Assembly (NCBI GenBank): GCA_002269645.1
Contig: NIVC01001044.1
Location: 1 to 64,000, forward strand
Direction of reading: 5' to 3'
Length of the DNA: 64,000 bases
Origin: Macrostomum lignano
Lineage: Eukaryota
In this document: piece by piece, positions 8,597 through 63,100 of the stretch
Layout: every line of letters begins with the position of its first letter
Numbering within the stretch: the first letter of the stretch is position 1
Program-made: the position numbers and the translations under genes
The notes under the pieces: model-generated
Told to the model about the DNA's origin: nothing
The model's database searches: none
The model's input: only the letters and a program-made list of their open reading frames with translations

Positions 8597-11500
8597 TCAG
8601 GGAGGCAGCAATGGCGACAGGGCATCGAGCAGCCGGGGGTCTCGGGTCTGCTCGATCCGGCCGCGCAGAATCCCCGGGCCGAGCAGGCGGGCCAGGCCGG
8701 CCAGGCAGTCCTCGGCGGCGGCTGCGGCCAGCTGACTGTCCTGCCGGTGCTCCAAGGCGTAGGCCAGCGGCTCCAGGAAGGCTTCCAGGTGGCGCTTGAA
8801 CACAGGCTTGCCAATGCCGCTGGCCACCTGGGGCAGGCGGCGCAGCACCGACTCCAGCAGGGCGAAATGGTGGGCGAACTGCCTGCGGGCGGACGGGCGG
8901 TGGGTAAGCAGGTGAGTGAGGGAGCCTGTGTGCAAACAGGTGCAAAAAGAGACGGAGATTGTTAGTGTACAGGTGCAGAGAGACACAAATATTGTTAGTG
9001 GACAGGTGCAAAGACACAAATACTGTTAGTGGACAACAGCAATCGGACAACTGCAATCAGACAGGTGCAATCAGACAACTGCAATCAGACAACTGCAATC
9101 AGACAGGTGCAATCAGACAACTGCAATCAGACAACTGCAATCAGACAACTACAATCAGACAGGTGCAATCAGACAACTGCAATCAGACAACTGCAATCAG
9201 ACAGTTACAACCAGACAACTGCAATCAGACAACTACAATCAGACAACTGCAATCAGACAGGTACAACCAGACAACTGCAATCAGACAACTGCAATCAGAC
9301 AACTGCAATCAGACAGTTACAACCAGACAACTGTAATCAGACAAATGCAATCAGACAACTGCAATCAGACAGATGCAATCAGACAGTTACAACCAGACAA
9401 CTGCAATCAGACAACTGCAATCAGACAGATGCAATCAGACAGTTACAACCAGACAACTGCAATCAGACAACTGCAATCAGACAGGTGCAATCAGACAGTT
9501 ACAACCAGACAACTGCAATCAGACAACTGCAATCAGACAACTGCAATCAGACAGTTACAACCAGACAACTGCAATCAGACAACTGCAATCAGACAGTTAC
9601 AACCAGACAACTGCAATCAGACAACTGCAATCAGACAACTGCAACCAGACAGCTGCAATCAGACAGTTACAACCAGACAACTGTAATCAGACAAATGCAA
9701 TCAGACAACTGCAATCAGACAGATGCAATCAGGCTACCTGTAAGTGGTAGCCTTAGCCAGCAGAGGCAGCAGGTCAGCCAGACGAGGCCGCAGCTCAGGC
9801 AGATCGCACAGCTCAGCCAGGAGGTGCACGCAACCGTCGGCGATCTCCCAGGGCTCGGCGGGGCGCCGGAAGTTGTGATTGGAGCAGCCGCCGCCCGGGG
9901 ACATCTTGGGCGCCAGCGAGCCGCAGGAGTACATGGTGCGGTCCGTGTGCAGCGCCTCGTCATTGTCGCGAATCCGCTTGGCCGCGGCGACGCCGAACAG
10001 CGCCGGCTCGGAGGCGAGGCCGGACGCGGCCGAACTGGACTCGGGCTGGCTGGCCGGCTGGGACAGCCCGGCCGACAGCTCGGACAGCAGGGCGTCGCCG
10101 AGGCCGGGGTTGCTGGGCAACAGGCTGGCAACGAGGCAGCGCAGCGAAGCGGCGGCGCCCTGCCTGACGGAGGGCACGCTGTCGCGGAGGTTGGCGGTGA
10201 ACAGCGGCAGCAGGCGGTCCAGCATGCCGGCGGTCTCGGCGGGGTGCGCCGTGGCGAAGCGGCCGCAGGCGATGCAGGCGGCGTCGCGGACTGGCCAGCT
10301 GTCGTCGTCGAAGCAGACCAGCAGGGCGGAGTACAGCTGGGGCACGTGCGGCTGCACCACCGCGGGGTCCACCTGAGTTGGGGGTGGCGATAATGGAGGC
10401 CTTGGAGTCGCTTCAGAGGAGAACATATATGAGCAATTAGTGGGGTCAGTGACCCCGGCAGGCATGTGTCAAGGGGTCAGCTGACCTCCATAGACTGTAA
10501 AATGCCATGTTGGAACACATTACTGGGGTCAGTGACATCCATAGACAGTACAGTGACTGCAGGAGCACATTAAGGGGGTCATTGACCCCTAAAGACAGTA
10601 TAGTAACTACAGGAGCACATTAGGGGGGTCAATGACCCCAAATAGACAGTATAGTGACTGCAGAAGCACATTAGGGGGGGTCAATGACCCCAAATAGACA
10701 GTATAGTGACTGCAGGAGAAGGGTACTGAAGTCAGTGACCCCCAAATACAGTATAGTGACTGTAAGAGCACGTTACGAGGATCAATGACCTCCAGAACAT
10801 ATACATGTACACTATAGTACAGCAGGGTTAGTGGACCCCACCCCCCAAGAGCAAGCTCACAGCTCACCTTATAACCCAGCTCGGCGATGCAAGCGCAGGC
10901 GGCCTCCCTAACAGCGTGATTGTTAGCCCTGGACTGTTCCACGTAGAACTTGACCACCTGGTCGATGTTATCGCTAACCAGCCGGGGGCCTTCAACTAAA
11001 GTGGCCAGCAGGCGCCAGGTCTCCTGGTTGAACAGCCGGACTCCCTCGGCCATGTAGTAGCGGTTCAGGCACAGCGGCGGCACCAGCAGGCGCTGAATCT
11101 CTGGCGGCGGCTTCGACCGCTCGTCCACGTATTTGAGCAGGAAATTCCTGGCTGCCAGGCTGGCGGCCATTCTCACCTGGCTCCAGTTGTCCGACAGGCC
11201 TGTGGCCAGCTGCTCAGCGATGCGGCCTCTGCAGGCTGTTGGGGCGGCGTCTCCGCGGGACACGGCGGCGAGCACCTGGAAGCCGGTCTCGCGGACGAAC
11301 CGGTTGGTGTGCCGCAGGGTGCTGAACACCAGCTCGAGGAGCTCGTCGTCAAGGAGACGGGCGAAGCCGGAGCCGTAGCTGAAAATTTATTCGTAAATTC
11401 ATTTAGGAAGGAAAAAGGGAGTTTCAGCTACCCAAAAGTACACAACGAGCCGCCTAAAGTACACGGAGGGATAGTAAGTCAGTAACACCAGTCAGTTACA

Positions 11501-34351: not shown

Positions 34352-34546
34352 NNNNNNNNNNNNNNNNNNNNNNNNNNNNNNNNNNNNNNNNNNNNNNNNN
34401 NNNNNNNNNNNNNNNNNNNNNNNNNNNNNNNNNNNNNNNNNNNNNNNNNNNNNNNNNNNNNNNNNNNNNNNNNNNNNNNNNNNNNNNNNNNNNNNNNNNN
34501 NNNNNNNNNNNNNNNNNNNNNNNNNNNNNNNNNNNNNNNNNNNNNG
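34352..34546. other. Assembly gap (195 N)
   Basis: Run of N. Confidence 1.
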
Positions 34547-36938: not shown

Positions 36939-39900
36939 TCAGTCATGCAGCTGGGCAATGAGCCGCTCTCTCTCCTTCTCCAGCTCGCCCTCGCTCAGGT
37001 CCATGCTGTCCGAGGCGTTCAGCGCCGCCTGCGACTCCTTCGGCGGTGCATCGTCGGCAGCAGTCTTCGAGGAGCCGCCACCGCGACCTCCGCGCTCGTC
37101 ACCGGAGGCTGCCGACGACCGGCTGGAATGTCGGCGCGCGCGCTTCCCGACCGCCGCTGACGACGAGGCGCCGGAGTGGCGCCGACTCCGGTGCTGCCGG
37201 CGCCGCGAGCCGCCGCTTTCCTCGCCGTCGTCAGGCAAGTCATCGCCGCCGCGCCGCCGCCTTCGTCGCGTTTTCGTTTCCGACTGCTGCCGCCGCCGCT
37301 GGAGGACTTGCCCTCCTTTCTGTGTTTCTTCTGCTCCTTTTCTTTCTTGTCCTTTTTCTTCTTTTTCTTCTCGCCACCAGCTTCGCCCTCGCCGTCGTCG
37401 GAATGCCGACTCTGCTTTTTCTTCTTCTTTTTGGTTTTTTGTCGCGCTCGCCGCCGGAGTCCGCCTTCTCGCCGTCCAAGTCGCCGTCGCTGTTTCGACG
37501 CGACTTCTTGCGGTCTTTGTCCTTAGACCGGTGGTCCTTGTCCTTGTCGACCTCCCGGTCGCGGTCTTTCTTTTTCTTCTTTTTCTTGCCCCCAGCCGCG
37601 GCGCCCGTGCCGCCAGACGCTGCGGATGCCGCCGGTTCGGCGAGGCTCTTCAAGAAGTCCTTGAACACGATGAGGCGCTCGGACTCGAGCGGGATGGCCT
37701 GGAAGCAGTCGGCCTGGCCGAATCTCTCCCTGACGGTGTCCCAGCTGGTGCTGGCGTCAACAGGCGGATCGGCCGAGAACAGCAGCTCCTTGAAGGCCTC
37801 GGCATGGCGCTGCATCTTGCGGCGCTCCTCTGCACGCTTCTCCTGCTCGATACAGCGCGCCTTCTCCTGCAGGCTGTCGAAGCTGCGCTCCACGTTGCCG
37901 GGGTCCAGCGAGCGGCCGCGCTCGTCCGAAGCGATCAGGCGAAGGAAATCCTCCAGCGCGGTGTCCGGACAGATGCTGAACGCGCGGTCCTTCATGATCT
38001 CCTTCACGATGCGCTTCTCCTCGGGGAATCGTTTCTTCAGATCGTCCACGTAGAATTTGAACAGGTCCAGCGGCGTGGAGCCCTGCTGGCACAGCATCTG
38101 GTCGAAACGACGGTCGCGGCAGATGTCGCGGAAGCAGTCTTTCCATAGGGAGTTCGCAGTGAGCCGGCCCTGGGATGGGGAGGAAATGCAAATAGACATT
38201 CATTATAGGAGCTTTGCTTTGCTTGTCTATTCTCCTCAGTGACAGATCTACTCCAATCAGTGACAGATCTACTTTAATCAGTGACAGATCCACTCCCATC
38301 AGTGACAGATCTACTCCAATCAGTGACAGATCTACTCCAATCAGTGACAGATCTACTTCAATCAGTGACAGATCTACTCCAATCAGTGACAGATCTACTT
38401 CAATCAGTGACAGATCTACTCCCATCAGTGACGGATCCACTCCAATCAGTGACAATCTACTTCAATCAGTGACAGATCTACTCCAATCAGTGACAGATCT
38501 ACTTCAATCAGTGACAGATCTGCTCCCATCAGTGACGGATCCACTCCCATCAGTGACAGATCCACTCCAATCAGTGACAGATCTACTTCAATCAGTGACA
38601 GATCTACTCCCGTCAGTGACAGATCCACTCCCGTCAGTGGCAGATCCACTCCCGTCAGTGGCAGATCCACTCCCGTCAGTGGCAGATCCACTCCCATCAG
38701 TGACAGATCCACTCCAATCAGTGACAGATCCACTCCAATCAGTGACAGATCCACTCCCATCAGTGACAGATCCACTCCCATCAGTGACAGATCCACTCCA
38801 ATCAGTGACAGATCCACTGCCATCAGTGACAGATCCACTGCCATCAGTGACAGATCCACTCCCATCAGTGACAGATCCACTCTTATCAGTGACAGATCCA
38901 CTGCCATCAGTGATAGATCCACTCCCATCAGTGACAGATCCACTCCCATCAGTGACAGATCCACTCCCATCAGTGACAGATCCACTCCCATCAGTGACAG
39001 ATCCACTCCCATCAGTGACAGATCCACTCCCATCAGTGACAGATCCACTCCCATCAGTGACAGATCCACTCCCATCAGTGACAGATCCACTCCCATCAGT
39101 GACAGATCCACTCCCATCAGTGACAGATCCACTCCCGTCAGTGGCAGATCCACTCCCGTCAGTGGCAGATCCACTCCCGTCAGTGGCAGATCCACTCCCA
39201 TCAGTGACAGATCCGCTCATACCTGGTCATGCAGCTCGTCCAACAGCACAACGAAGGCCTCTCTATTCTTCCTCTCTTGCCGCCGCTGCCTCAGCTGGTT
39301 CTCCTCTTTCTTATCGTCCTCCTCTTTCTCCAGGCGGGTGACGTGTTTCTGAAAGCAGATCAGCGCGTCCTCCTTGTCCATGTCTAGCAGCTCGCGGTCG
39401 GAGCGGAAGCTGGCGCTATTGCTGAGCATCTGCTGTGCCTCAGTCCAGGTGGTCAGGTAGTTCATCTCCTTCATACCCGCCAGAATCTCACCGAACCGTT
39501 CGATATTCCTGCGCTGCAGGGCCCGCTGCGCCTCCCGCTCGCGCTTGTCAATCTCGCGCACCGCGTCATCGAAGATGTCCCTGCGGTCCCGTTCGGGGAC
39601 GGCCGTCCAGACGCGCAGATCGACGAACATCTTCTCGGCTGTGCGGTACTTTGTGCTCGAAGTGATTGGCGCCGTCTGCAGCAGGAACTGCTCCAGGTCT
39701 TCGCGGGCCTTCTTGATCTGCGAGGGTTTGACAAGATAAGCATGTATAAGCATTTCAGCAGATATAAACACCCGATTACAGCTATTATAAACACCCCATT
39801 TTAGCATGGATAAACACCCGATTCAGCAGATATAAACACTCGATTAAGTATTTATAAACACCCGATTTAAGCATATAAAAACACCCAATTAATTTTATAT

Positions 39901-41542
39901 AAACACCCGATTTCAGCATAGATAAACACTTTTTTAGCATATATAAACACTTGATTTCAGCAGATATAAACACAAAAGTTTAGCATATATAAACACCTGA
40001 TTTTAGCTGATATAAAAACCCGATTTCATCATAGATATCTTTTTTATCATAGATAAACACTTGATTTCAGCATAGATAAACACTCGATTTCAGCATAGAT
40101 AAACACTCAATTTCAGCATATATAAGCATCCAATTTTAGCAGACATAAACACGGATATCAGCATAGATAAACAACCGATTTGAGCAAATATAAACACACG
40201 ATTTCAGCAGATAAAAACACAAAATTTTAGCATCTATAAACACCTGATTTTAGCTGATATAAACACCCGATTTCAGTGTATATAAACCCAATTCAGGCGA
40301 ATAAACACTCAATTTCAGCAGCTATAAAAATCAATTTTTGAATCTATTCATCTAAACACCGAATTGATGCTCTAATAAACACATCAACTCAACTTAAGCC
40401 TCTCAAAACACAATTAAAGATTGCAAAAACACTCTGATAAGGCTCTCTATAAACAAACACCCAATAGATGCCCCAAAGAGAATCAAAATAAAGATTCAAC
40501 TGAAACCAACCTTCAACCGCTGCTCCTCTTTCTCCTCCTTCTGCCGCTGAGTCTTATAATTATTGAACACCTGGCGCCTGTGCTGCAGGTGTTTCACCTG
40601 CTGGTAGCGCGGGTCCTCCTGAATCATGCGCACTGCGGTCTCCCAGGTGGCGCTGGACGGCACCCGCCGGTCCCGCAGCAGCTCTTTAAACACGTCTTCC
40701 TTGCTTTGCTCCTGCTGCTGCGGCTTGTTTTTCTTCTTCTTTCGGCCGGAGCCGCCGCTGCCGTCCGAGTCCTCGGAGCTGTCGCTGTCGTCATCGGCGC
40801 CAGACATGTCGCCGCCGCCGCGCCTTCGCTTACCGCCGCCTCGCTTGCCCGCCGCCGACGCCGAACTGCCAGCGTCGGAAGCGGCGGCGTCGGTAGTCGG
40901 CGGAATGACGCCGAATGACTCCAGCGTCTTCTTCATCGCTTCCTCGATGGCGGAGCTGCCGCCGCCGCCGCCGCCGCTGGCAGCCGGGGAGCCAACGGCG
41001 GCGGTAGGCGGAGGCGGCGGCCCAGACTGCTGCAGGTGCTGCATCTGCCTGAGCGGCTCGATGGCAGCCGCGGCCGCCGCCCGCTGCCGGGCCATCTCAG
41101 CCTGCTGCTCGGCCAAGCGGAGCTCCTCAGGCTTGGTCCACACGGACTGATTGGTGACCGAGTGAGAATAGTACACCTTGCCGGCATCCGTGCGGAACTC
41201 TCGCCACGGACACCGGGCCATGATCAGCTCCCACTCGGTTTTCAGATCGTCCGGCTTCTCCCAGACTGTCTTGCCGGTCACCAGGTTGTAATAGTACGTC
41301 TTGCCGTCTGGCATCGTGTGCTCCGCCCACTTCTTGTCCGTCGCAGCCGCCGCAGCTGCCGGGTGCCCCATCTGGTGATGCGGCATGGCGTGAAAGGCGT
41401 GGTGGGGCTGCTGCTGATGCTGCGGCGCTGGCGCCGAATAAGCGCCGGGCGCGGCGCCGCTGGGAAACATTGGCGCCCCGACAACTGGGGATGAGTGCTG
41501 TTGGTGCTGCGTGCGAACAGGAAAGCCGTTAGCCGCTGACAT
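36939..41542 (-). CDS. PRPF40A: Pre-mRNA processing factor 40 (two WW domains, FF domains, Lys/Arg/Ser-rich tail); two 1-nt frameshifts in the last exon
   Basis: Exons 41542-40511, 39717-39223, 38169-36939. WW1 [21 protein letters not shown]; WW2 [19 protein letters not shown]; FF repeats ([22 protein letters not shown]); conserved C-terminus [18 protein letters not shown]. Frame restored by +1 nt at ~37438 and ~37251. Confidence 0.93.
38235..39215. repeat. 21-bp intronic minisatellite (CAGTGACAGATCCACTCCCAT)n
   Basis: Fills PRP40 intron 38170-39222. Confidence 0.97.
39745..40340. repeat. Degenerate AT-rich ~22-bp intronic repeat (ATAAACACCCGATTTCAGCAT-like)
   Basis: PRP40 intron 39718-40510. 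Confidence 0.85.
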
Positions 41543-41694
41543 TGACTGCTGTGTCGGCGTAGGCTAGACTGGGTTCATGCAGTAATGCGCAAAATATTAA
41601 CTGTATTCATATTCTACTTGAAGTAGACAAATTGGATTATCAGTACATCATTTGTGCGCTCAACCCAAATGTAAAACCTGATACAGGCATTGGT

Positions 41695-44896: not shown

Positions 44897-47154
44897 AAGA
44901 CAGAGAGGCAATTTTAATGTCTGCGACTCTAAAACGACCCTACGACTCAAGAAGTCGTACTTGATGCGTGCTAAAGTCGCTGTCGAGCCACTAAGTTGTG
45001 CTTGAATCACTAACTAGCCTACTGAGTTAGTAGAAAGTTGAGGGCCAACACAATAATTCTTAAACGACTCTTGGACGTTTGTGTCGCAACAGTCGCCTCT
45101 TTGTCGCATTAGACACGTTTGAGTCGTTCGAAAGTCATTTCGAACTCGCTAGAGTCACCAGAAAGTTGTTTGTAACGACTTTTCAGCGATTTTTCTCTTG
45201 GTATCGGGGACCCAACGATAATAAGGCTAAGGCAGTTATACACCACTAGTCAGCGCGTGCCTGCGTGCGTATCCGAGTGCGGATACCCATGGCTGCTTGC
45301 AGTTTGCCTCACCGATGGCTGATAATGATCCCGCAAATACAGACAATCAAAGCCAAAGCCTAGATAAACAGATAATTGGTCTGTGCAACCAACTCAACTT
45401 ACCTCAACAATGGGCTCTTGGTGAGCAATCTCCAGTCCGCCCTCTGAGTCAGCAGCGACCGCCTGCTGTTTCAGCGAGCTGACAAGCAGCTGCTCGGCCT
45501 CCTCCCCCACTGACACATTCCACACCAGCAGCTCGCCTGTGAAGCTGCCGCCCGCCAGCAGGGAGGCGTTGCTGGGGTGGTATTGCACTGAGGTAACGCA
45601 GCTGGACGTCTCGAGAACTGCATGCGGCTTCTGCTGCTGCTGCTGGCGGTCCTGCTGCAATGAGTGACATGTTCAGGTGCACTGATTGTGGATAAATGCG
45701 GTCTGTTTGGGAGCACAGACAGAAAGACACAGACAGACAGGCAGGCAGACACAGACAGTCACAGACAGTCAGACAGACAGGCAGACACAGACAGTCACAG
45801 ACAGACAGACAGGCAGACACAGACAGACAGTCACAGACAGACAGTCACAGACAGACAGTCACAGACAGACAGGCAGACAGACACAGTCACAGACAGACAG
45901 ACAGGCAGACAGACAGGCAGACACAGACAGTCACAGAAAGACAGACAGGCGGACAGACAGACAGACACAGACAGTCACAGACAGACAGACAGGCAGACAG
46001 ACAGGCAGACACAGACAGACAGACAGGCAGACAGACAGGCAGACACAGACAGTCACAGGCAGACAGACAGACAGACAGGCAGACAGACACAGACAGTCAC
46101 AGACAGACAGACAGACAGACAGACAGGCAGACACAGACCCACCTGTCCCCGCGCAGAGGAGGCATTCCACACGCAGACGGCGCCCCTGTGCAGGCACCAG
46201 TCCTGGTGGTCGGACCGGCCCAGCGCAGCGGCCACAAACGCGCCGGTGGCGCTCCAGCTCAGTGCGGCTACTGGCATGGAATCGAGCTCGGGACTGCCAG
46301 CGCCGGCTACGACGGAGAGTCGAAGCGGCGCCGTGTCGGAGTTGGTGCCGGCGCCGCCACCGGGTCCGCGTGCGCCGTAGCGGCCGGAGAGAGCGGAGAA
46401 GGCGGTGCTGCGCGAGGCGCGCTCGAGCTCCCGGCACATCAAAGGCTCGAGCCGACGCAGCGCCTGCATCAGTGAGAATAACGGGGTGGGGTTGGAAATG
46501 CTTCTCTGCTTGCCATCGGAAGCTTGAAGAGTTTAGGGCTGATAGCGGCTGCTTGAATTCAGCTTTTCAGGTGGGGAATTTACTCAGGTAGCCCATTACT
46601 CAGGCGGGAAATTTACTCAGGTAGCTCATTACTCAGGTGGGGAATTTACTCAGGTAGCCCATTGCTCAGGTGGGGAATTTACTCAGGTAGCCCATTGCTC
46701 AGGTGGGGAATTTACTTAGGTAGCCCATTGCTCAGGTGCGGAATTTACTCAGGTAGCCCATTGCTCAGATGGGGAATTTACTCAGGTAGCCCATTACTCA
46801 GGTGGGGAATTTACTCAGGTAGCTCATTGCTCAGATGGGGAATTTACATACTCAGGCAGGTAACCCACTGCTCATTTAACTTATTTGTTAAATAACTTAT
46901 TAGTTTATAAAACCAATAAAACTCAGACACACCTTGATAACCTCCGGATCCAGCTCGCTGGAATCAACACTGAGCTCCTCCTGCACGTACATGAAGCTGT
47001 CAGTCTGGCACTCGACCTCTTTGCGCCGGGTGGTCTGCAGGCCGCGCTGGTAGCGGGTGATGGCGGGTGTCTCGGTCTCGCGGTCCTTGGTTTTTACCTC
47101 GACGCGCCAGGCCGAGGGGCAATCAATAACGGCTTGACTTTCGTCTGAGAACAT
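42604..47154 (-). CDS. WDR34: Dynein-2 intermediate chain WDR34 (WD40 repeats); one 1-nt frameshift in the last exon
   Basis: Exons 47154-46933, 46463-46143, 45654-45403, 43595-42604, all phase 0. N-terminus MFSDES..CPSAW..EVECQTD; [13 protein letters not shown]; [16 protein letters not shown]; [22 protein letters not shown]; HQEPIVEILW. All match the WDR34/DYNC2I2 family. Frame restored by +1 G at ~43500. Confidence 0.88.
43755..44905. repeat. (GACA)n microsatellite in WDR34 intron 3
   Basis: Direct reading. Confidence 0.98.
45715..46140. repeat. (GACA)/(CAGT)-based repeat filling WDR34 intron 2
   Basis: Direct reading. Confidence 0.95.
46565..46860. repeat. 33-bp intronic minisatellite (GTGGGGAATTTACTCAGGTAGCCCATTGCTCAG)n
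   Basis: About 9 units in WDR34 intron 1. Confidence 0.93.
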
Positions 47155-54388: not shown

Positions 54389-55613
54389 ATGTCCAAGCTG
54401 GAATTAAAAACGTTCTGTACGTCTGCAGCTGCCTGCGTTGCCATGCTTATTCTCATTGAGATATTTTTTAAAATCCGCTACGCTTCAGCTGCAAATATCC
54501 AGTTTAAAAAGACTAAACTTTGCCCAGCTTCTGAGCAGATACGGCAGATGAAGCTGAGCAGTAAAATCCAGTGCGCCGCTGCGTGCAGCGCTGATAAGCT
54601 TTGCGACGCGTTTCATTTCGACAGGATAAGCCGGATCTGCTACATTGGAGACGCCTGCGCAAATAAAATGCTGTGGACTGCTGGAGCATGCGACTCGCAC
54701 GTGTACTATCCAGGCCATGTTGTCAGCAATGTGAAGGGTAAGTGCATCGCATATTTCAAGTACTGTACAACTGCATGAATCGCTTACACTCTCGGACACT
54801 CATTTTACTCAGACGGAAAATCGACATTCTTCAAGCGCCTACAGCTGCTGCTGTTTTACCGGTTCAAGAAGAATGGTTTGGTGAACGAGGTGGACTCGAG
54901 GCGATTCTGTTTGAAAGCGCACGATGTGACAGTCGGCAGTGACGGAGCCGGGTTCAAGGGCAGCCCGAGTTCTTACCTGAGCGCGGAGACTCCAGGATTT
55001 AATGAATACCTCGACTATGGGAAGAGTTACTCGTTTTACCTTCTGGTTCGGCATGTCATGGATTGCGAGTACGTTGCCTTCTAATTAATTAATAGGTTAC
55101 TGTTCAAATTTACAGTATGCATGAACGTTGAGTCAACTACATGTATGAATTCCAAAACTGCCAATAAATTTCAGGTATCAATACTATCATTCGTTCTGGA
55201 GCTGTGGCAGCTCTCCTGAAAGAAGCAATTCATTTGCTAAGCGTTCGAACTTCATATACGGCTATTCGTACTGGACTCAGGGCGACTACAAGAGGTTCCT
55301 GGCCGAGTCTGAGACTTTCCTGCCTGAGACCACTCAGCCAGCCCTGCTGTCTGTCGGTTGCGCTTACAACAGAACTGCCTACCAGCACTTCTACTTTAAC
55401 GGCTCGGTGTATGACAACTTCAAGAAGGCTCATCCGATGCAACCGGGAGCTTCAGTTAATCCATCTAGTTTTGACTGTCTAAAACTGGGATATTCTCCAG
55501 ACTCCTCTATCAGTCTAAATGGCTCTCTTTACTGCTATGGCATGAGCTCGAAAATATTGAATCAGGAAGAGTTCAAAGAGCTGGAGGACTTCTGCACCAA
55601 CACTAGTGATTAA
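54389..55613 (+). CDS. Secreted protein (347 aa): signal peptide, PAN/Apple domain, C-terminal LamG/concanavalin-A-like domain
   Basis: Exons 54389-54737, 54813-55068, 55175-55613 (1044 nt, phases match; introns 75 and 106 nt). Hydrophobic N-terminus ending ASA|AN; PAN pattern QCAAACSADKLCDAFHF..C; LamG-like FKGSPSSYL..SYSFYL and LNGSLYCYGMSSKILNQEEFKEL. The LamG call is by eye. Confidence 0.8.
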
Positions 55614-55801: not shown

Positions 55802-56450
55802 TGTGACAGTGTGATTCGTAGAATCGCGTGTATCGTATTTCTTTATTTTCATATGCATACCGTATTCTTTCATTTATTTTAACAATATTCGTACGTATTA
55901 TTATCGCGCTATTTTTACTGTTAATTGCTTTGTTTTTTGTAGCCTCTTATGTATTTATTCTATTATTTGTATTTCATTCATATCGTTATTATTTATCGTA
56001 AAGTAGTCCTACCTATGTACATGTGCTGACGTATGTTATTCTTGTATGATATATTTATCGATTAATTTGTACATGTACATTTCACCTGAGTGGGGTTTGT
56101 CTGGTTTTTGGATTAAGCTTGTTGTTATCTTGTTTACTCACCAATTATAAAAATACACTTGCAGTCAGCGGCCGCTCTATCCTTTTGCTTCGTTGCTTCG
56201 CTTCTCGCTCTAAGCTTGCGGGTCCCTTAGCTGTCTGGCCTCTTTACCTTAACCCTCTACCGCCTGCCTCAGCCCACCCACCAGTCAACTGAATCCTGAC
56301 CGGCCCTTGCTAGGCGCATCAAATTAAGTACCTAACCAAACATACTAAATCTGCGATTTCACGCTAAGGATAAAATCGGCTGCTGATCTGCTGGTTCGTA
56401 GACTAATCCCAATTATCCGCTACACAAAGTCTTCCGCTTTATTCGTCACA
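55802..56450 (+). repeat. 5' LTR (649 bp) of the Gypsy element
   Basis: Starts TGTGAC at 55802, ends GTCACA at 56450, 6 nt before the PBS. Internal TATAAAA at 56146-56152 with GCAGTC initiator-like site at 56161. No second copy in the window, so the left boundary is unverified. Confidence 0.7.
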
Positions 56451-56456
56451 TAAATT

Positions 56457-56473
56457 TGGAGGTCCCACCGAGA
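56457..56473 (+). promoter_or_regulatory. Primer-binding site complementary to the 3' end of tRNA-Gln
   Basis: TGGAGGTCCCACCGAGA is the reverse complement of ...TCTCGGTGGGACCTCCA, the 3' end of eukaryotic tRNA-Gln, directly after the LTR. Confidence 0.88.
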
Positions 56474-56529: not shown

Positions 56530-56850
56530 CGTTGTTATTTGTGGCGATCTGCAACGTTCTGCGACGATCTGCGACGATCTGCGACGATCTGCGGCGATCT
56601 GCGACGATCTGCGGCGATCTGTGGCGATCTGCGACGATCTGCGGCGATCTGCGACGATCTGCGGCGATCTGCGACGATCTGCGGCGATCTGTGGCGATCT
56701 GCGACGATCTGCGGCGATCTGCGACGATCTGTGGCGATCTGCGACGTTCTGCGGCGATCTGCGACGATCTGCGGCGATCTGAGACGATCTGCGGCGATCT
56801 GCAGCGACCTGCGACGATTTCTGGCGATCCGCGGTGAGCTGAGGCAATCT
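56530..56850 (+). repeat. 10-bp tandem repeat (GATCTGCGRC)n in the retrotransposon 5' UTR
   Basis: About 30 near-identical units between PBS and gag ATG. Confidence 0.95.
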
Positions 56851-57188: not shown

Positions 57189-60100
57189 ATGAGTGACCGC
57201 GAGGACAGGAGTGCCACTGCTGGCTCTCCAAATCCAGACGCTTCTGCTCAGGAAAGAAAGTTTGTGGCAAGCAACACTACAGACTCAGAGCCACTTCTTG
57301 CTAGTACCATTGCCGCACTGCACCGGTTGTTAGAAAATCAATTCTCAAGAGAGTCCCGTTCTCAATCGTTCTACCAGAGTCAACAGAAGGAAACAGCTTC
57401 AGGCATTAAGCTTCGGCCGCCACCGTTGTTCACTTGCACCACGAAGTTTGATGCCTGGGAAGCTCAGTTCAATGCGTACATTGAAGCTCATAGGGTTCCT
57501 TACTTTCAACAGACTGCAGTCCTGCTGTCCCTTCTGGCACCAGAATGCCAGGAGTACTTTCTAAATAAAACTACACGGTCGAATTAACTTGTTTACAGCT
57601 CGGTGGTCAATGCATAGTCTCTGAGACCCATCTTTCTTCTTAACTAACACTATCGGTGATACCCAGTCTGAATAACAATCTCACGGATCAGACCTGTGAA
57701 GAGGCACTGAAGTCTATGAGAGCGCGTTACACTGACTCTAACGTTAGGGAGAAAAGTTATATGGAACTAGTTGCCGCTCACCAGAACAGCACCGAATCGA
57801 TTGCCGAGTTTTACGATAGGTTAGCATCTTATGCCCGGTTAGCAGACCTCTCATCAACCGAAGCTGAACCTTTATTACGAGCGAGGCTGTGCCATGGCAT
57901 TCGGGATAAGGTGCTCGCAGAAAAACTCTTGCTTTGGAGCAGTGATGCAGGGGTGAGTGATGAGTCTAGTGGGGCAAAGGCTAAGACTGTCCCGTCTGCC
58001 GAGTTGGTTAAGAAGGCCAAGGAGATCGTTGGTATTCAGCAACTTCTGCAACCCGCTCCAAACTCCTCTGCGAATATCCGTGTCCTTGAAACCGAGAAGG
58101 CGTCTCTGGAGGCAAGAGTAGAAGAGCTAGAGAGACTCCTTCGACTCCAGAACCAGGCTGGAGTTTCCAAGCCTGTTGCTGTCAACCAACCACAACCATC
58201 TAACAAGTCAATCCAAAATTCAAACCAACACAAGCCACATAACAAGCACAAGAATAAACAACCGCCAAATCACGGGGCAACTCAGCAATTTGGTACAGCG
58301 GTGTCCAGATCAAGGAAATGCTACAGGTGCGGTGGTGAGGACCATTTCATTGCCGACTGTCCCATCACACCAGCACCTCCAATAGCTCACCAGACCGCTG
58401 CTAAGAGTCATCCTCCAAATAATCAGGCCCAGCATATGTCGGAGGTTGGTTCAATTGTTTCCTGGAAGGGGAACTTCGGGTTCATTCAATCAGAACAACT
58501 TCCCGACCAGCTCTTCTTTCACCGTGGTGAGCTGTCTGAATCCTTGAACCGTTCGGCTGACCAGCACCAACTCGTGGGCACAAGAGTCCAATTCCATCGG
58601 AAAATTGACTCGGGCAAGAAGCGCGATCAGGCTTGTGGGGTAAGGCCAATTCCATCGATCAATCAGACACATTTAGGCCAAACTAGTTCCGATGAGCCTG
58701 CGGTGGATTCCAGCTTCTTTGTCCAGTTGCGAATCGGGGACAACCAAGTCATGGCTTGCCTTGACTCGGGGGCAAACGCCAGCGTGATGGGGAAGCAAGC
58801 CATGGAGAGACTGGTTGAAGCCGATCCGATCAACAACATCTTTTCGCCAGCGCACAAAGACGCAAAGGCAACGGCTTTCAACGGGTCCACCACCCAGATT
58901 TTAGGCTCTTTGCGCTGCGAAGTTGAACTAGGCAAGATTAAAAAGCATCACGTTTTCCTTGTGACCGAAGAATCCACTGCTGAATCGCTCTTAGGTATTG
59001 ATTTCCTCCGTGGTTTCCAGGTGCTGCTGGATTTCACCTGTGGCCAGGTACTCGTGGCCGGTGGAGCAGTGCCTGTGATCGAGGGCGATAAGGGGGTGTT
59101 TCGCATACGCCGTGTATTGGCTGCTTGTACCTCTGAGCTACCACCTCACTCGGAAACCCTAGTGCCGAGTCGAGTGATTGACACTGTGCCAAACCTGAGT
59201 GGCACAGTCTCCTCTAAACTTTTCAATACAGACTCAGAATTTTTTGTAGCTAGGTCAGTGGATAGAGTCAGCCCGACGAATCACGTGTTAGTCCGATTGC
59301 TAAATAGTAGCGATCAACCAGCTAGGATTGAGCGTGACCAAGAGATTGCATCTTTTCAAGAGCTCGGTCATGGAGAAGTTGTAGTACCAACTGCTCTGTC
59401 TGAGAAGGATTTTTCCATAGACAACTGCAATCTCCTCAATAGTAAGCTTTCAAGATTACCACCACCAGAAAAAGGTACAGCAGAATGGCTTGTGAAACAG
59501 TTCCGACTCGACCAGTCCAGTCTGACTCCAAATCAATTAGCCCTAACTTTGCGCATGCTTAATTACTTTTTAAGCCAGATCTCACAGGATGATAGTGATC
59601 TCGGTCGCACAAAGCTACATGAAATGTCAATCGATCTGATTGAGAAGGACAGTCGTCCGGTTCTGCTCGCTTCGAGGAGAACAACTCCAGCTCAAAAGGA
59701 GTTTTTAGATCAACATATTAGTCAATTGCTTAAGCAGGATGTAATTGAAGAGTGTGATTCAGACTGGGTATCACCGATAGTGTTAGTTAAGAAGAAAGAT
59801 GGGTCTCAGAGACTATGTATTGACTACCGAGCTGTAAACAAGTTAATTAGACCGTGTAGTTTTCCATTGCCATTAATTGAAGAGTCGTTTGACAGCCTGG
59901 CTGGTTCTTCGGTGTTCAGCAGCCTTGATTTAACCTCTGCCTATTGGCAGGTGGGAATCAAAGAAGAAGACAGAGATTTTACAGCTTTCTCTTGTCCACA
60001 GGGCACGTTTCGTTGGAAAGTAATACCATTCGGAATCAAAACAGCCCCAGCGAATTTCGCTAAATTAATGCACAAGGTATTTCAGCCATTGCTTATGAAA

Positions 60101-63100
60101 GTTAGCCTAATTTACCTCGATGATATAATAATAAAAGCACAGAATAATGACCAAATGATCGCGCACCTAGCGCTGGTGCTTTGGCAACTTCGCAAGGCCA
60201 ATCTGAAGATTAAACCTGCGAAGTGTGAGCTATTTAAAGACAGAGTTAAGTTCTTAGGGTTCATAGTCTCGTCTAACGGTATCGAAGCCGACCCAGCCAA
60301 GACTCGAGCGGTCCAAGAGTGGTGTAGACCGAAAGACAAGAAACAGTTAATGGCGTTTCTTGGCTTTGCCAACTATTATAGGAAATTCGTACAACGATTC
60401 TCAGTTATTGCCACGCCGCTGTACGCGCTGGCTAAAGGTTCGGAAAAGTTCGTGTGGTTAGAACGCCACGAACGCGCATTCCAAGAACTCAAGCGCTGTT
60501 TGTGCAACCCACCGGTATTAGCGTATCCGGACTTGTCTCCCGACAGTCGTGGGTTCGTGCTCGACTGCGACAGTTCACTTGAAGGAGTTGGCGGCGTGCT
60601 ATCTCAGATTGGCCCAGATGGGTCAGAACAAGTCGTTGCGTACGCATCTAAGAAATTTTCACAGAGTCAGTCGAACTATTGTGCAACCATGCGCGAGTTA
60701 CTAGGGTTAGTACTCATGCTAGAACACTTTCGTACATATCTGTTAGATCGACCTTTCACAGTCAGAGTGGATGCCGCAGCCCTGCAGTGGCTTCATTCTA
60801 AGAAACATGCCACAGGCATGCTCGCGCAGTGGCTCGCGACCATAGATTTGTACGAATTCAAGATCGAACAGTCAGCTCTTGAAAGAGTCGGAGAATACGA
60901 CTTTGAGGTCCAGTACCGGCCAGGGAAAGACCATGTCGTGGCAGATATGCTGAGCCGAAATCCTCGCTTTCGTGCCGATCACTTCGACTGCCCGTCATGC
61001 AGCACGGTACCTGAATTTCAAGAGAAATTTAAAAGCGAGAGGGCTAAAAAGTCAGCATCAGTTAACATCAGAAGGCAACAAGTTGACGCTGCAGTGCAAT
61101 GCTCTGTAGCGGACGTATGTTGCCAGACAGACTCGCCTGTCACGAGCTGTCACAATATCGAAACAGTAGTAGCATCAGCCTGTCAAACCGAAACATTCAC
61201 AAGCAACACATCAACACAGTGCACATTTTTCACTACAGTTCCGGTCACAGAGGCCGCTGTCGAAGCGACAATGCCAATCGAAACGTCTCGACTAGCAGTC
61301 AGGGTAGCTGAAGTCGAACAATCGGCATCCAGCGAATCCTCAGTCGAGTCAGTTGACCCGGAACTAGAATGGGCACGTGAATCACAAGAGACTTGCGTTG
61401 ACATCGCTCAGCTGATCGATTGCGTGCAGGGCCGTACAGAAAAGCCTCCTAAGGCTAGCCTGCAGAGTTGCAGTCGTGAAGTTAGAATCTTGTGGTCGCT
61501 GTTCGATGAACTGAAAGTCGAAAATGGGCTCTTATATCACCTTAAGCCGAAAAAGAACAAAAAATCAGTCAATAAGCTGTTAGTGATTCCAGAGACCGCA
61601 GATGTTGTCGAGTTGGTGTCAAAATACCACCGACAGCTCAATCACTGCGGCATCACAAAAACCCTGACAGCTATTCGATCTCGTTTCGCCATCGCCGACC
61701 TAGAAACTTATGTCAAGGGAATCATAGCTGAGTGTGACGTCTGCGCCAGAACAAAAAAGTCAAAACTGAAGCATAAAGCCCCGCTGCAGCCCGAACTCTC
61801 GGGCTACCCGAACCAGGTGGTCCACGTCGATCACGCAGGTCCGTTTCCCGAGCAAGCAGGATATAGGTACTTGCTCGTGATGGTTGACCGATTTTCGGGT
61901 TTTGTAGAGGTCATTCCCGTAGCCGATGTCTCAGCGGAAACGACTGCAGTCAATATCCTGACCGAATGGATCGCGAGATACGGGTGCATGGAACAGATAG
62001 TCTCGGACAACGGTACAGCCTTTGTCAACAGCACCGTATCTGAGCTCACTCGACTTCTCGAGGTGGACATGGCGCGTGTCACAGCACGACGTCCACAAGC
62101 GAACGGGAAGGTTGAGCGAATGATACAGACAGTTAAAGGTCAGATTCGTGCTATTTGCTTGGATCGGCAGTTCGATTGGCCTCTTGCAGCCCGGCTAGCA
62201 GCTCTCTCGATTCGGGCAACAGTCGCCGAATCCACTGGATTTTCTCCCGCAAAGATCTTCTTTGGACACGAGCTAAATCTGCCACTGGATCTGGTTCATA
62301 ATCCACCAGTTCAAGATAGGTACAGACCTGAACTGTATGCACATTATCTGCACCAGACGCTCGTTGAGGTATCAGCGGCTGCGCGCCATGCCCGTGGAAA
62401 GGCCCAAGAGCGCCAAAAGCGCTACTATGACCGCAGCGCGCTGAACTCTAACTTCGAGATAGGCGATCTTGTATGGGTCCTCAACGCCGACCATCGTGGC
62501 CTCGACAGTGCTGTCTGGTTTGGACCATACAAGGTGGTGCAAAAGATTTCGGAGAGGAATTACAGACTCATTCCAGAATTCGCTAGAATAAATCCTTTGG
62601 AGCGCATTCCCAACCCGTCTCACAATGTGTACAATGTCGATCGGATGAAGCGCTGTGTGCGCAAACAGACTTATGAAGATGTTGTGGACAGGTACGGGAC
62701 TCGCATGCCAGCCAGAATGCCGTCGTCAAGAGTAGGCTTGCGAGGAGACGACCAGTCTACCTGGTTGTCTTCGTGCTCCATCAACGGTTCCAATCAAAGT
62801 GCTGCGACTCAACCGCTCCAGGTATCAGAAAGTGCGTCATCAGCGCTTGTGGATGAGTCCCAGCAGGTTACCACAGTTGCCACTCCCGACCTGTCAGTTG
62901 CAGTGCCACCCCGCCGATGGAGCCCTTGGAAGGAGAGGCGGGAGTAATCGATGAAGGTGATCCGCACGAGGTTTCGAACGGTAAACAGAGTGGCAGAGCT
63001 GTGTTCGATGAAAATGGCGATCTGTTGGAGGAGGCGGCAGAAGATGTCACCGAGGAGCAAGCTCCGGCTGAAGACAGTCCCGTTAGGGGGGAAGCCGGTA

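Follow-up and report, generated by a model that had tools for sequence, protein, structure and literature searches.

A candidate LC8-binding site kept between RNase H and integrase in a group of Ty3/gypsy retrotransposons of Macrostomum lignano

Comparison of the families related to a Ty3/gypsy LTR retrotransposon found in a stretch of Macrostomum lignano DNA (64,000 nucleotides of contig NIVC01001044.1, the whole of which is called the window hereafter) indicates that an LC8-type motif in the spacer between RNase H and integrase is a real feature, kept under selection, and that the four-fold array seen in the window family is a local multiplication of a site retained throughout the group. This conserved candidate site is a likely docking place for the LC8 dimer of the host, by which two polyprotein chains would be clamped together behind RNase H; to this reading as a whole a probability of about one half is assigned. 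That LC8 binds at least one of the motifs is, on the strength of the sequence comparisons reported here, quite probable.

The element carrying the motifs is a young Ty3/gypsy LTR retrotransposon: an LTR pair, a primer site, a purine tract and a target duplication (4 bp, flanking the element) are all present, and the insertion is young because the two LTRs are nearly identical. The primer-binding site is the one that we take to be complementary to tRNA-Gln. The features relevant to the present analysis are the following (window positions, strand in brackets).

55802..56450 (+): 5' LTR, 649 bp, TG...CA
Outside the window, L126:1197-1845: 3' LTR, 99.85% identity to the 5' LTR
56457..56473 (+): primer-binding site, matched exactly at 99 places in the genome
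57189..57587 (+): 5' part of gag, in a frame that differs from that of the long ORF in the window copy
57567..57681 (-): 115-bp inverted copy of the RT-region stretch 59749-59863, interrupting the gag of this very young window copy
57644..62947 (+): long gag-pol ORF of 1767 aa, with a gag piece, CCHC knuckle, CSD-like domain, protease, RT, RNase H, insert and integrase
58721..59011 (+): aspartic protease, domain match
59786..60268 (+): reverse transcriptase core, domain match
60455..60958 (+): RNase H-like domain up to the terminal ADxLSR, domain match
60980..61000 (+): H-x-D-C-P-x-C module, present in all families and followed by a predicted helix; putatively metal-binding
61001..61369 (+): variable insert of 123 aa, pLDDT <50 at model residues 216-295
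61082..61105 (+): LC8-type motif 1, VDAAVQCS, aa 1147, VQC anchor
61109..61132 (+): LC8-type motif 2, ADVCCQTD, aa 1156, CQT anchor, at the position that is conserved among families
61169..61192 (+): LC8-type motif 3, VASACQTE, aa 1176, CQT anchor
61202..61225 (+): LC8-type motif 4, SNTSTQCT, aa 1187, TQC anchor
61295..61309 (+): word resembling a protease site, located downstream of the motifs; a putative cleavage site, being similar to the junctions at the capsid end and at the protease end
61370..62077 (+): integrase, with a folded N-terminal extension, the H2C2 zinc domain at 61610-61759 and the catalytic core at 61808-62077

Within the 1767-aa ORF the Pfam bounds are aa 938-1068 for RT_RNaseH and aa 1323-1372 for Integrase_H2C2; the order of the domains is PR-RT-RH-IN, and the integrase fold matches the PFV and Ty3 intasomes. 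Contigs of four out of four sequencing runs cover the stretch, a result that is uninformative on expression; no RNA run is listed as containing it.

Some further features of the element and of its surroundings may be recorded here. The 5' leader contains a 10-bp tandem repeat (56540-56850), and the CCHC knuckle is separated from the protease by a CSD-like region (58466-58648, +; Pfam CSD E 1.8e-4, below the cut-off) that can be aligned across all seven full-length families; the combination of CSD and CCHC recalls Lin28-type RNA binders. The interval between protease and RT (59100-59400, +) holds a conserved domain without a Pfam match, which presumably resembles a dUTPase-like fold. Elsewhere in the window there are a HEAT-repeat gene (9737-11386, -), a run of N (34352-34545), a PRPF40-like WW/FF gene (37243-41563, -) and a PAN-domain stretch (54389-54778, +).

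All four motifs are in frame in the long ORF, between RNase H and integrase, exactly where the first-pass annotation had placed them, and the low-complexity linker of about 130 aa that it described corresponds to the 123-aa insert, 76 residues of which are S, T, V, A or E. All four have the Gln at position 0 and the mid-sized residues at -1 and +1 of TQT-type LC8 clients, but none has TQT itself as anchor. Each of them passes the rule pattern, which asks for a small or polar side chain at -4 and excludes Pro inside the motif as well as a bulky hydrophobe at +2; the small residue found at -3 in motifs 1 and 3 is disfavoured in LC8 clients (PMC6607443), and motifs 1 and 2 are spaced by only nine residues. 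In an AlphaFold model built on 90 sequences, motifs 2-4 have pLDDT below 50 and no secondary structure and are predicted to be disordered, and motif 1 is found at the end of a predicted helix of middling confidence; a single-sequence model of the junction (pLDDT 35) is uninformative.

The four pattern matches of the whole 1767-aa protein all fall inside the insert, and against the shuffled insert of the window (20,000 shuffles), a comparison by which the first-pass annotation had proposed to judge them, the motifs exceed chance: two matches are found against 0.22 expected when only residues seen in binders are allowed (p=0.018), and four against 0.25 when Cys is admitted at -1 (p=1e-4), the latter pattern having been added after the motifs had been seen. 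Among the matches listed, 17 loci belong to the window family, family A. The four motifs are intact in 11 of these loci; another four are two broken copies, each fetched twice, in which the match to motif 2 is lost at a frameshift, and in two further broken loci the matches to motifs 2-4 are lost.

Conservation across families was followed with two kinds of pattern, one derived from the rules given in section 9 of PMC6607443 and the other from the per-position residues of the 62 measured entries in DataSheet1 of PMC12057147. A search of the element's own genome gave 196 matches; 70 loci were read from the 150 matches listed and 20 more from a second search, and the loci read sort into ten families with a complete insert. 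The RNase H of these families is 72-80% identical to that of the window among the rows listed, and the inserts are 16-37% identical between families, with the exception of two close pairs at 66% and 44%. A motif is nevertheless kept in all ten families between flanks that are unalignable, so that the conservation relative to the flanks on which the first-pass annotation had made its proposal depend is indeed observed. Each family carries one to four motifs, most of them one or two. The binder-seen pattern is matched in seven of the ten families, by 13 motifs, against 1.0 family and 1.06 motifs expected (shuffle maxima 6 and 7; 10,000 shuffles), and the Cys-admitting pattern in all ten, by 18 motifs against 1.1 expected, families B, B2 and G matching only if Cys is allowed at -1. 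When one member of each close pair is removed, the corresponding figures are 6/8 families for the binder-only pattern and 8/8 for the Cys-admitting one. The shuffles ignore shared descent, so that the p-values overstate independence, and what they demonstrate is retention rather than ten separate events.

The codons of the motif vary synonymously across families, which argues that the constraint acts on the protein and rules out a cause of conservation at the DNA level; between two B subfamilies, the codon changes amount to 4 silent and 4 replacement in 18 for the core, and to 4 and 17, respectively, in 40 for the downstream insert. A hold-out set consisted of 40 new loci fetched by the shared primer site alone, most of which are truncated copies, eight loci with the primer site lost at the fetch edge being left out. 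The RNase H anchor pattern of the group is absent in all 40; four of them (L142, L165, L168 and L171, near-identical and matching the proteins of the group mainly at the RNase H end) represent a decayed eleventh family, and in each of the four VNVGCQTE follows the RNase H end, in a single frame in one case. The suspicion that such motifs arise by chance in an S/T/Q-rich spacer is fed by the composition of the insert, in which S, T, V and Q abound, and by the post hoc widening of one of the patterns, but the observed totals were never reached in composition-preserving shuffles, and both the decayed family of the hold-out set and a second lineage, described below, agree with the retention; the chance explanation is thus largely refuted, and hardly any weight is left to it.

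Several motifs of the group closely resemble measured LC8 binders: IDACCQTE is similar to IDAATQTE of Chica (0.4 uM), VDSSSQTE to LDVSSQTD of KIBRA (0.45 uM), and SNTSTQCT to STTGTQCD of Ana2 (13 uM), while a VQC anchor is reported to bind LC8 in gephyrin. The CQT anchor, that of the best-kept motif, does not occur among the 62 measured entries of PMC12057147 DataSheet1; TQC is known from Ana2. A TQT anchor alone is no guarantee of binding either, because many anchor-bearing phage-display peptides fail (31 of 53 phage-display peptides, many of them with a TQT anchor, were non-binding). The host genome has genes for a canonical LC8 of 89 aa, among them L071:1498-1764 (-). Taken together, the likeness to measured binders and the conservation across families between unalignable flanks support the proposal of the first-pass annotation that the motifs are of the LC8 type.

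The same annotation had pointed to a motif of this type in WDR34, in the same window. KEVECQTD is indeed present at 46999-47022 (-), and a stretch downstream on the same strand matches human WDR34 (E 7.5e-11, the best dynein hit); motif and WDR34 stretch probably belong to one gene, but the KEVECQTD-bearing stretch by itself matched nothing relevant in the PDB or the Atlas. The probable gene comprises 46933-47154 (-) and 45397-45672 (-), and in its first stretch three LC8-like words follow one another at distances of 12 and 10 residues, the third being CQT-anchored.

The position of the site is informative as to its possible role. In all ten families the first motif lies 44-57 aa past the end of RNase H (SD 3.8 aa), whereas its distance to the folded integrase extension ranges from 42 to 119 aa (SD 26 aa). 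The capsid-end and protease-end junctions of the seven full-length families share the word [VIL][RKN]x[VLAI], which we infer to be a protease site. Such a word occurs just upstream of the first motif in seven of the ten families (0.5 expected) and downstream of the motifs in four (1.4 expected), in the latter case always 24-30 aa before the integrase extension: families A and C2 have it downstream only, E, F, G and H upstream only, and B and C on both sides, the downstream word being the sole protease-like site in the insert of window family A. Provided that these cuts are real, the product that carries the motif would differ among families, being RT, integrase or a spacer set free by the cuts; the word upstream of the first motif could alternatively be an extension of the LC8 strand.

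The vicinity of a putative cleavage region raises the question whether the kept xQT[DE] word is itself a recognition element of the protease, or the site of a partner other than LC8. The lack of a CQT anchor among the measured entries and the reported preference of the Ty1 protease for polar words with Val or Ile at P2 and P2' would agree with this; the junction words of the group, however, are unlike the motif, positions -4 and -2 also follow LC8 binders, and the presence of one to four copies with variable spacing and with TQT, SQT, IQT, CQT, VQC or TQC as anchor is a spread like that of LC8 clients, so that this alternative is regarded as unlikely. A reading as S/T-Q kinase sites was rejected, since in many of the motifs the residue preceding the Gln is C, I or V.

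The first-pass annotation had taken the linker to be, probably, the N-terminal extension of integrase, which LC8 might dimerise. The protease-like word preceding the first motif in most families is what this proposal would predict, and HIV-1 integrase has been reported to bind DYNLL1, according to the title of a paper and a sentence citing it. On the other side stand the variable distance between motif and integrase extension (42-119 aa; in the second lineage, 140-330 aa to the cut-off used there), the families with the downstream site only or with both sites, and the protease-like words of the outgroups, which cluster 80-100 aa before HHCC, close to where the folded extension starts (36/97 against 12.5 expected). 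An N-terminal extension of integrase is a possible fate of the motif in families with an upstream site, but it fits less well with a distance fixed to RNase H and with a window family that has the downstream site only; we judge a clamp on mature integrase to be rather improbable.

A further proposal of the annotation was that integrase may use LC8 to reach dynein for transport to the nucleus; LC8 would then hook the particle, or the pre-integration complex, to dynein. Pol is expected to be inside the particle, a circumstance that counts against such a hook. A review describes foamy virus Gag as binding LC8 and requiring it for centrosome targeting, but this Gag uses a coiled coil instead of a TQT strand; in addition, it is in the same grooves that LC8 receives its clients, and the protein is seen as a hub for dimerisation rather than as a cargo adaptor (PMC6607443). 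Transport by dynein is accordingly disfavoured and appears very unlikely.

A clamp exerted by LC8 on the precursor or on the RT tail fits better than either an integrase extension or a dynein hook, because the distance is fixed to RNase H and the protease-like sites vary by family. A clamp on two Pol chains is favoured on the following grounds: LC8, in its role as a hub, binds two client strands in symmetric grooves; in rabies P the LC8 site is found about 15 residues past the dimerisation domain, the dimer being extended by LC8 (PMC12017986); Ty3 RT behaves as a monomer by itself but forms dimers on nucleic acid, and a close association of RT and integrase aids reverse transcription (PMC5371799). 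Each LC8 dimer would take up two motifs, one per chain, as additional beta-strands, and might extend a weak dimer formed at the C-P-x-C/helix module, in the manner known from rabies P; the clamp would favour the pairing of RT, and would hold RT and integrase paired in the precursor. It would most likely act before or during processing, whichever product inherits the motif, because protease-like sites are seen before the cluster, after it or, in two or three families, on both sides. The upstream word, if cut, would part the motif from RT, which counts against a clamp on RT. The idea that the motifs are instead a decoy, drawing LC8 away from host silencing complexes, might be entertained in view of the dimerisation by LC8 of a piRNA silencing complex in Drosophila; LC8 is, however, highly expressed (PMC6607443), a decoy would have no need of a fixed motif position, and a silencing complex of the Drosophila type is not known from flatworms, all of which makes a decoy highly improbable.

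The spacer of the group is long by comparison: the span from RNase H to HHCC is 176-254 aa here, as compared to 68-114 aa in 19 of 20 other Ty3 loci of the genome (one is without RNase H there). Among database relatives, the linkers of other Ty3 elements have a motif in 5/97 cases against 3.3 expected, and in 2/31 against 0.9, linkers that were unparsable or shorter than 86 aa and one chimeric row having been left out; good-looking single motifs in the distant proteins P0049, P0150, P0102 and P0084 are, as a set, not above chance. In two quick trees the seven families included in each form one branch (SH-aLRT 100), and the nearest tree rows, L116/P0018 and P0019, show no pattern match in the linker.

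A second lineage came to light when the excellent motif of outgroup P0178 prompted a search around it, which gave 12 hits and six parsed members. Four of the six have a single TQT or VQT motif (CDGATQTE, YNRCTQTE, VEMSVQTE and RERGTQTE), 59-72 aa past the RNase H end; of the remaining two, one shows TST at that offset and the other lacks a motif, as does the sister row P0267. Without P0178 the count is 3/5 against 0.48 expected (p=0.006), and 3/6 when P0267 is added (p=0.011). Five members form a branch of their own (support 98), apart from the flatworm group; the backbone between the two is weak, and independent gain is thus not proven. It can tentatively be suggested, with more reserve than for the site itself, that a clamp by LC8 was acquired more than once by Ty3/gypsy elements where RT and integrase meet, that it would join two Pol precursors behind RNase H and so drive assembly of the RT dimer, and that the protease of the element may later move or remove it.

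Two other arrangements met among these sequences deserve mention. In P0263 a histone-fold segment (PF00125; H2A-like by eye) directly follows the LC8-type motif of the RH-IN linker, and an element of the same genome as the window, L089, has its integrase directly after the protease, an order that, we assume, recalls Gmr1-like elements.

Among described systems, the phosphoprotein of rabies virus (PMC12017986) is similar in that a polymerase-associated protein of a parasite has its LC8 site in disorder, shortly past a dimerising element; it differs in being the cofactor of an RNA virus with one site and demonstrated binding, whereas the present case is the junction of a retroelement polyprotein with one to four predicted sites and protease-like words adjoining them. 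Closely spaced sets of motifs that are weak or not of the TQT type, within disordered sequence, are also reported for KANK1 L2, ASCIZ, Nup159 and Ana2 (PMC12803091 and the binder table), which are, however, host scaffolds with up to 15 sites, while here one kept site is accompanied by family-specific extras. HIV-1 integrase and foamy virus Gag are likewise retroelement proteins reported to use LC8, but neither corresponds to an RT-IN insert, and the latter, as mentioned, binds by a coiled coil. The Ty3/gypsy (Ty3/Mdg4) LTR retrotransposons of Macrostomum lignano have themselves been described (PMC12801592), with the same order PR-RT-RH-IN, and the word "dynein" is absent from the main text of that paper; a 99% identical protein is labelled M. 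lignano by its source. The first-pass annotation knew of no array of LC8 motifs in an LTR retrotransposon, and a literature search, with most subscription journals outside its coverage, found no paper on one either. The motif site is probably an LC8 site of which no description was found for LTR retrotransposons, and would represent a known kind of use of a host hub.

To our knowledge, few host factors acting on the enzymes of LTR retrotransposons are known outside yeast and flies. A conserved predicted LC8 site supplies a named host partner, which can be tested directly by peptide assay, and provides a possible explanation of why the spacers between RT and integrase vary in these elements. 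If the proposal is true, the hijacking of LC8, known from RNA viruses and retroviruses, would also occur in retrotransposons, seemingly in two of their lineages, and the host hub LC8 would serve retrotransposition as an assembly factor whose action is timed.
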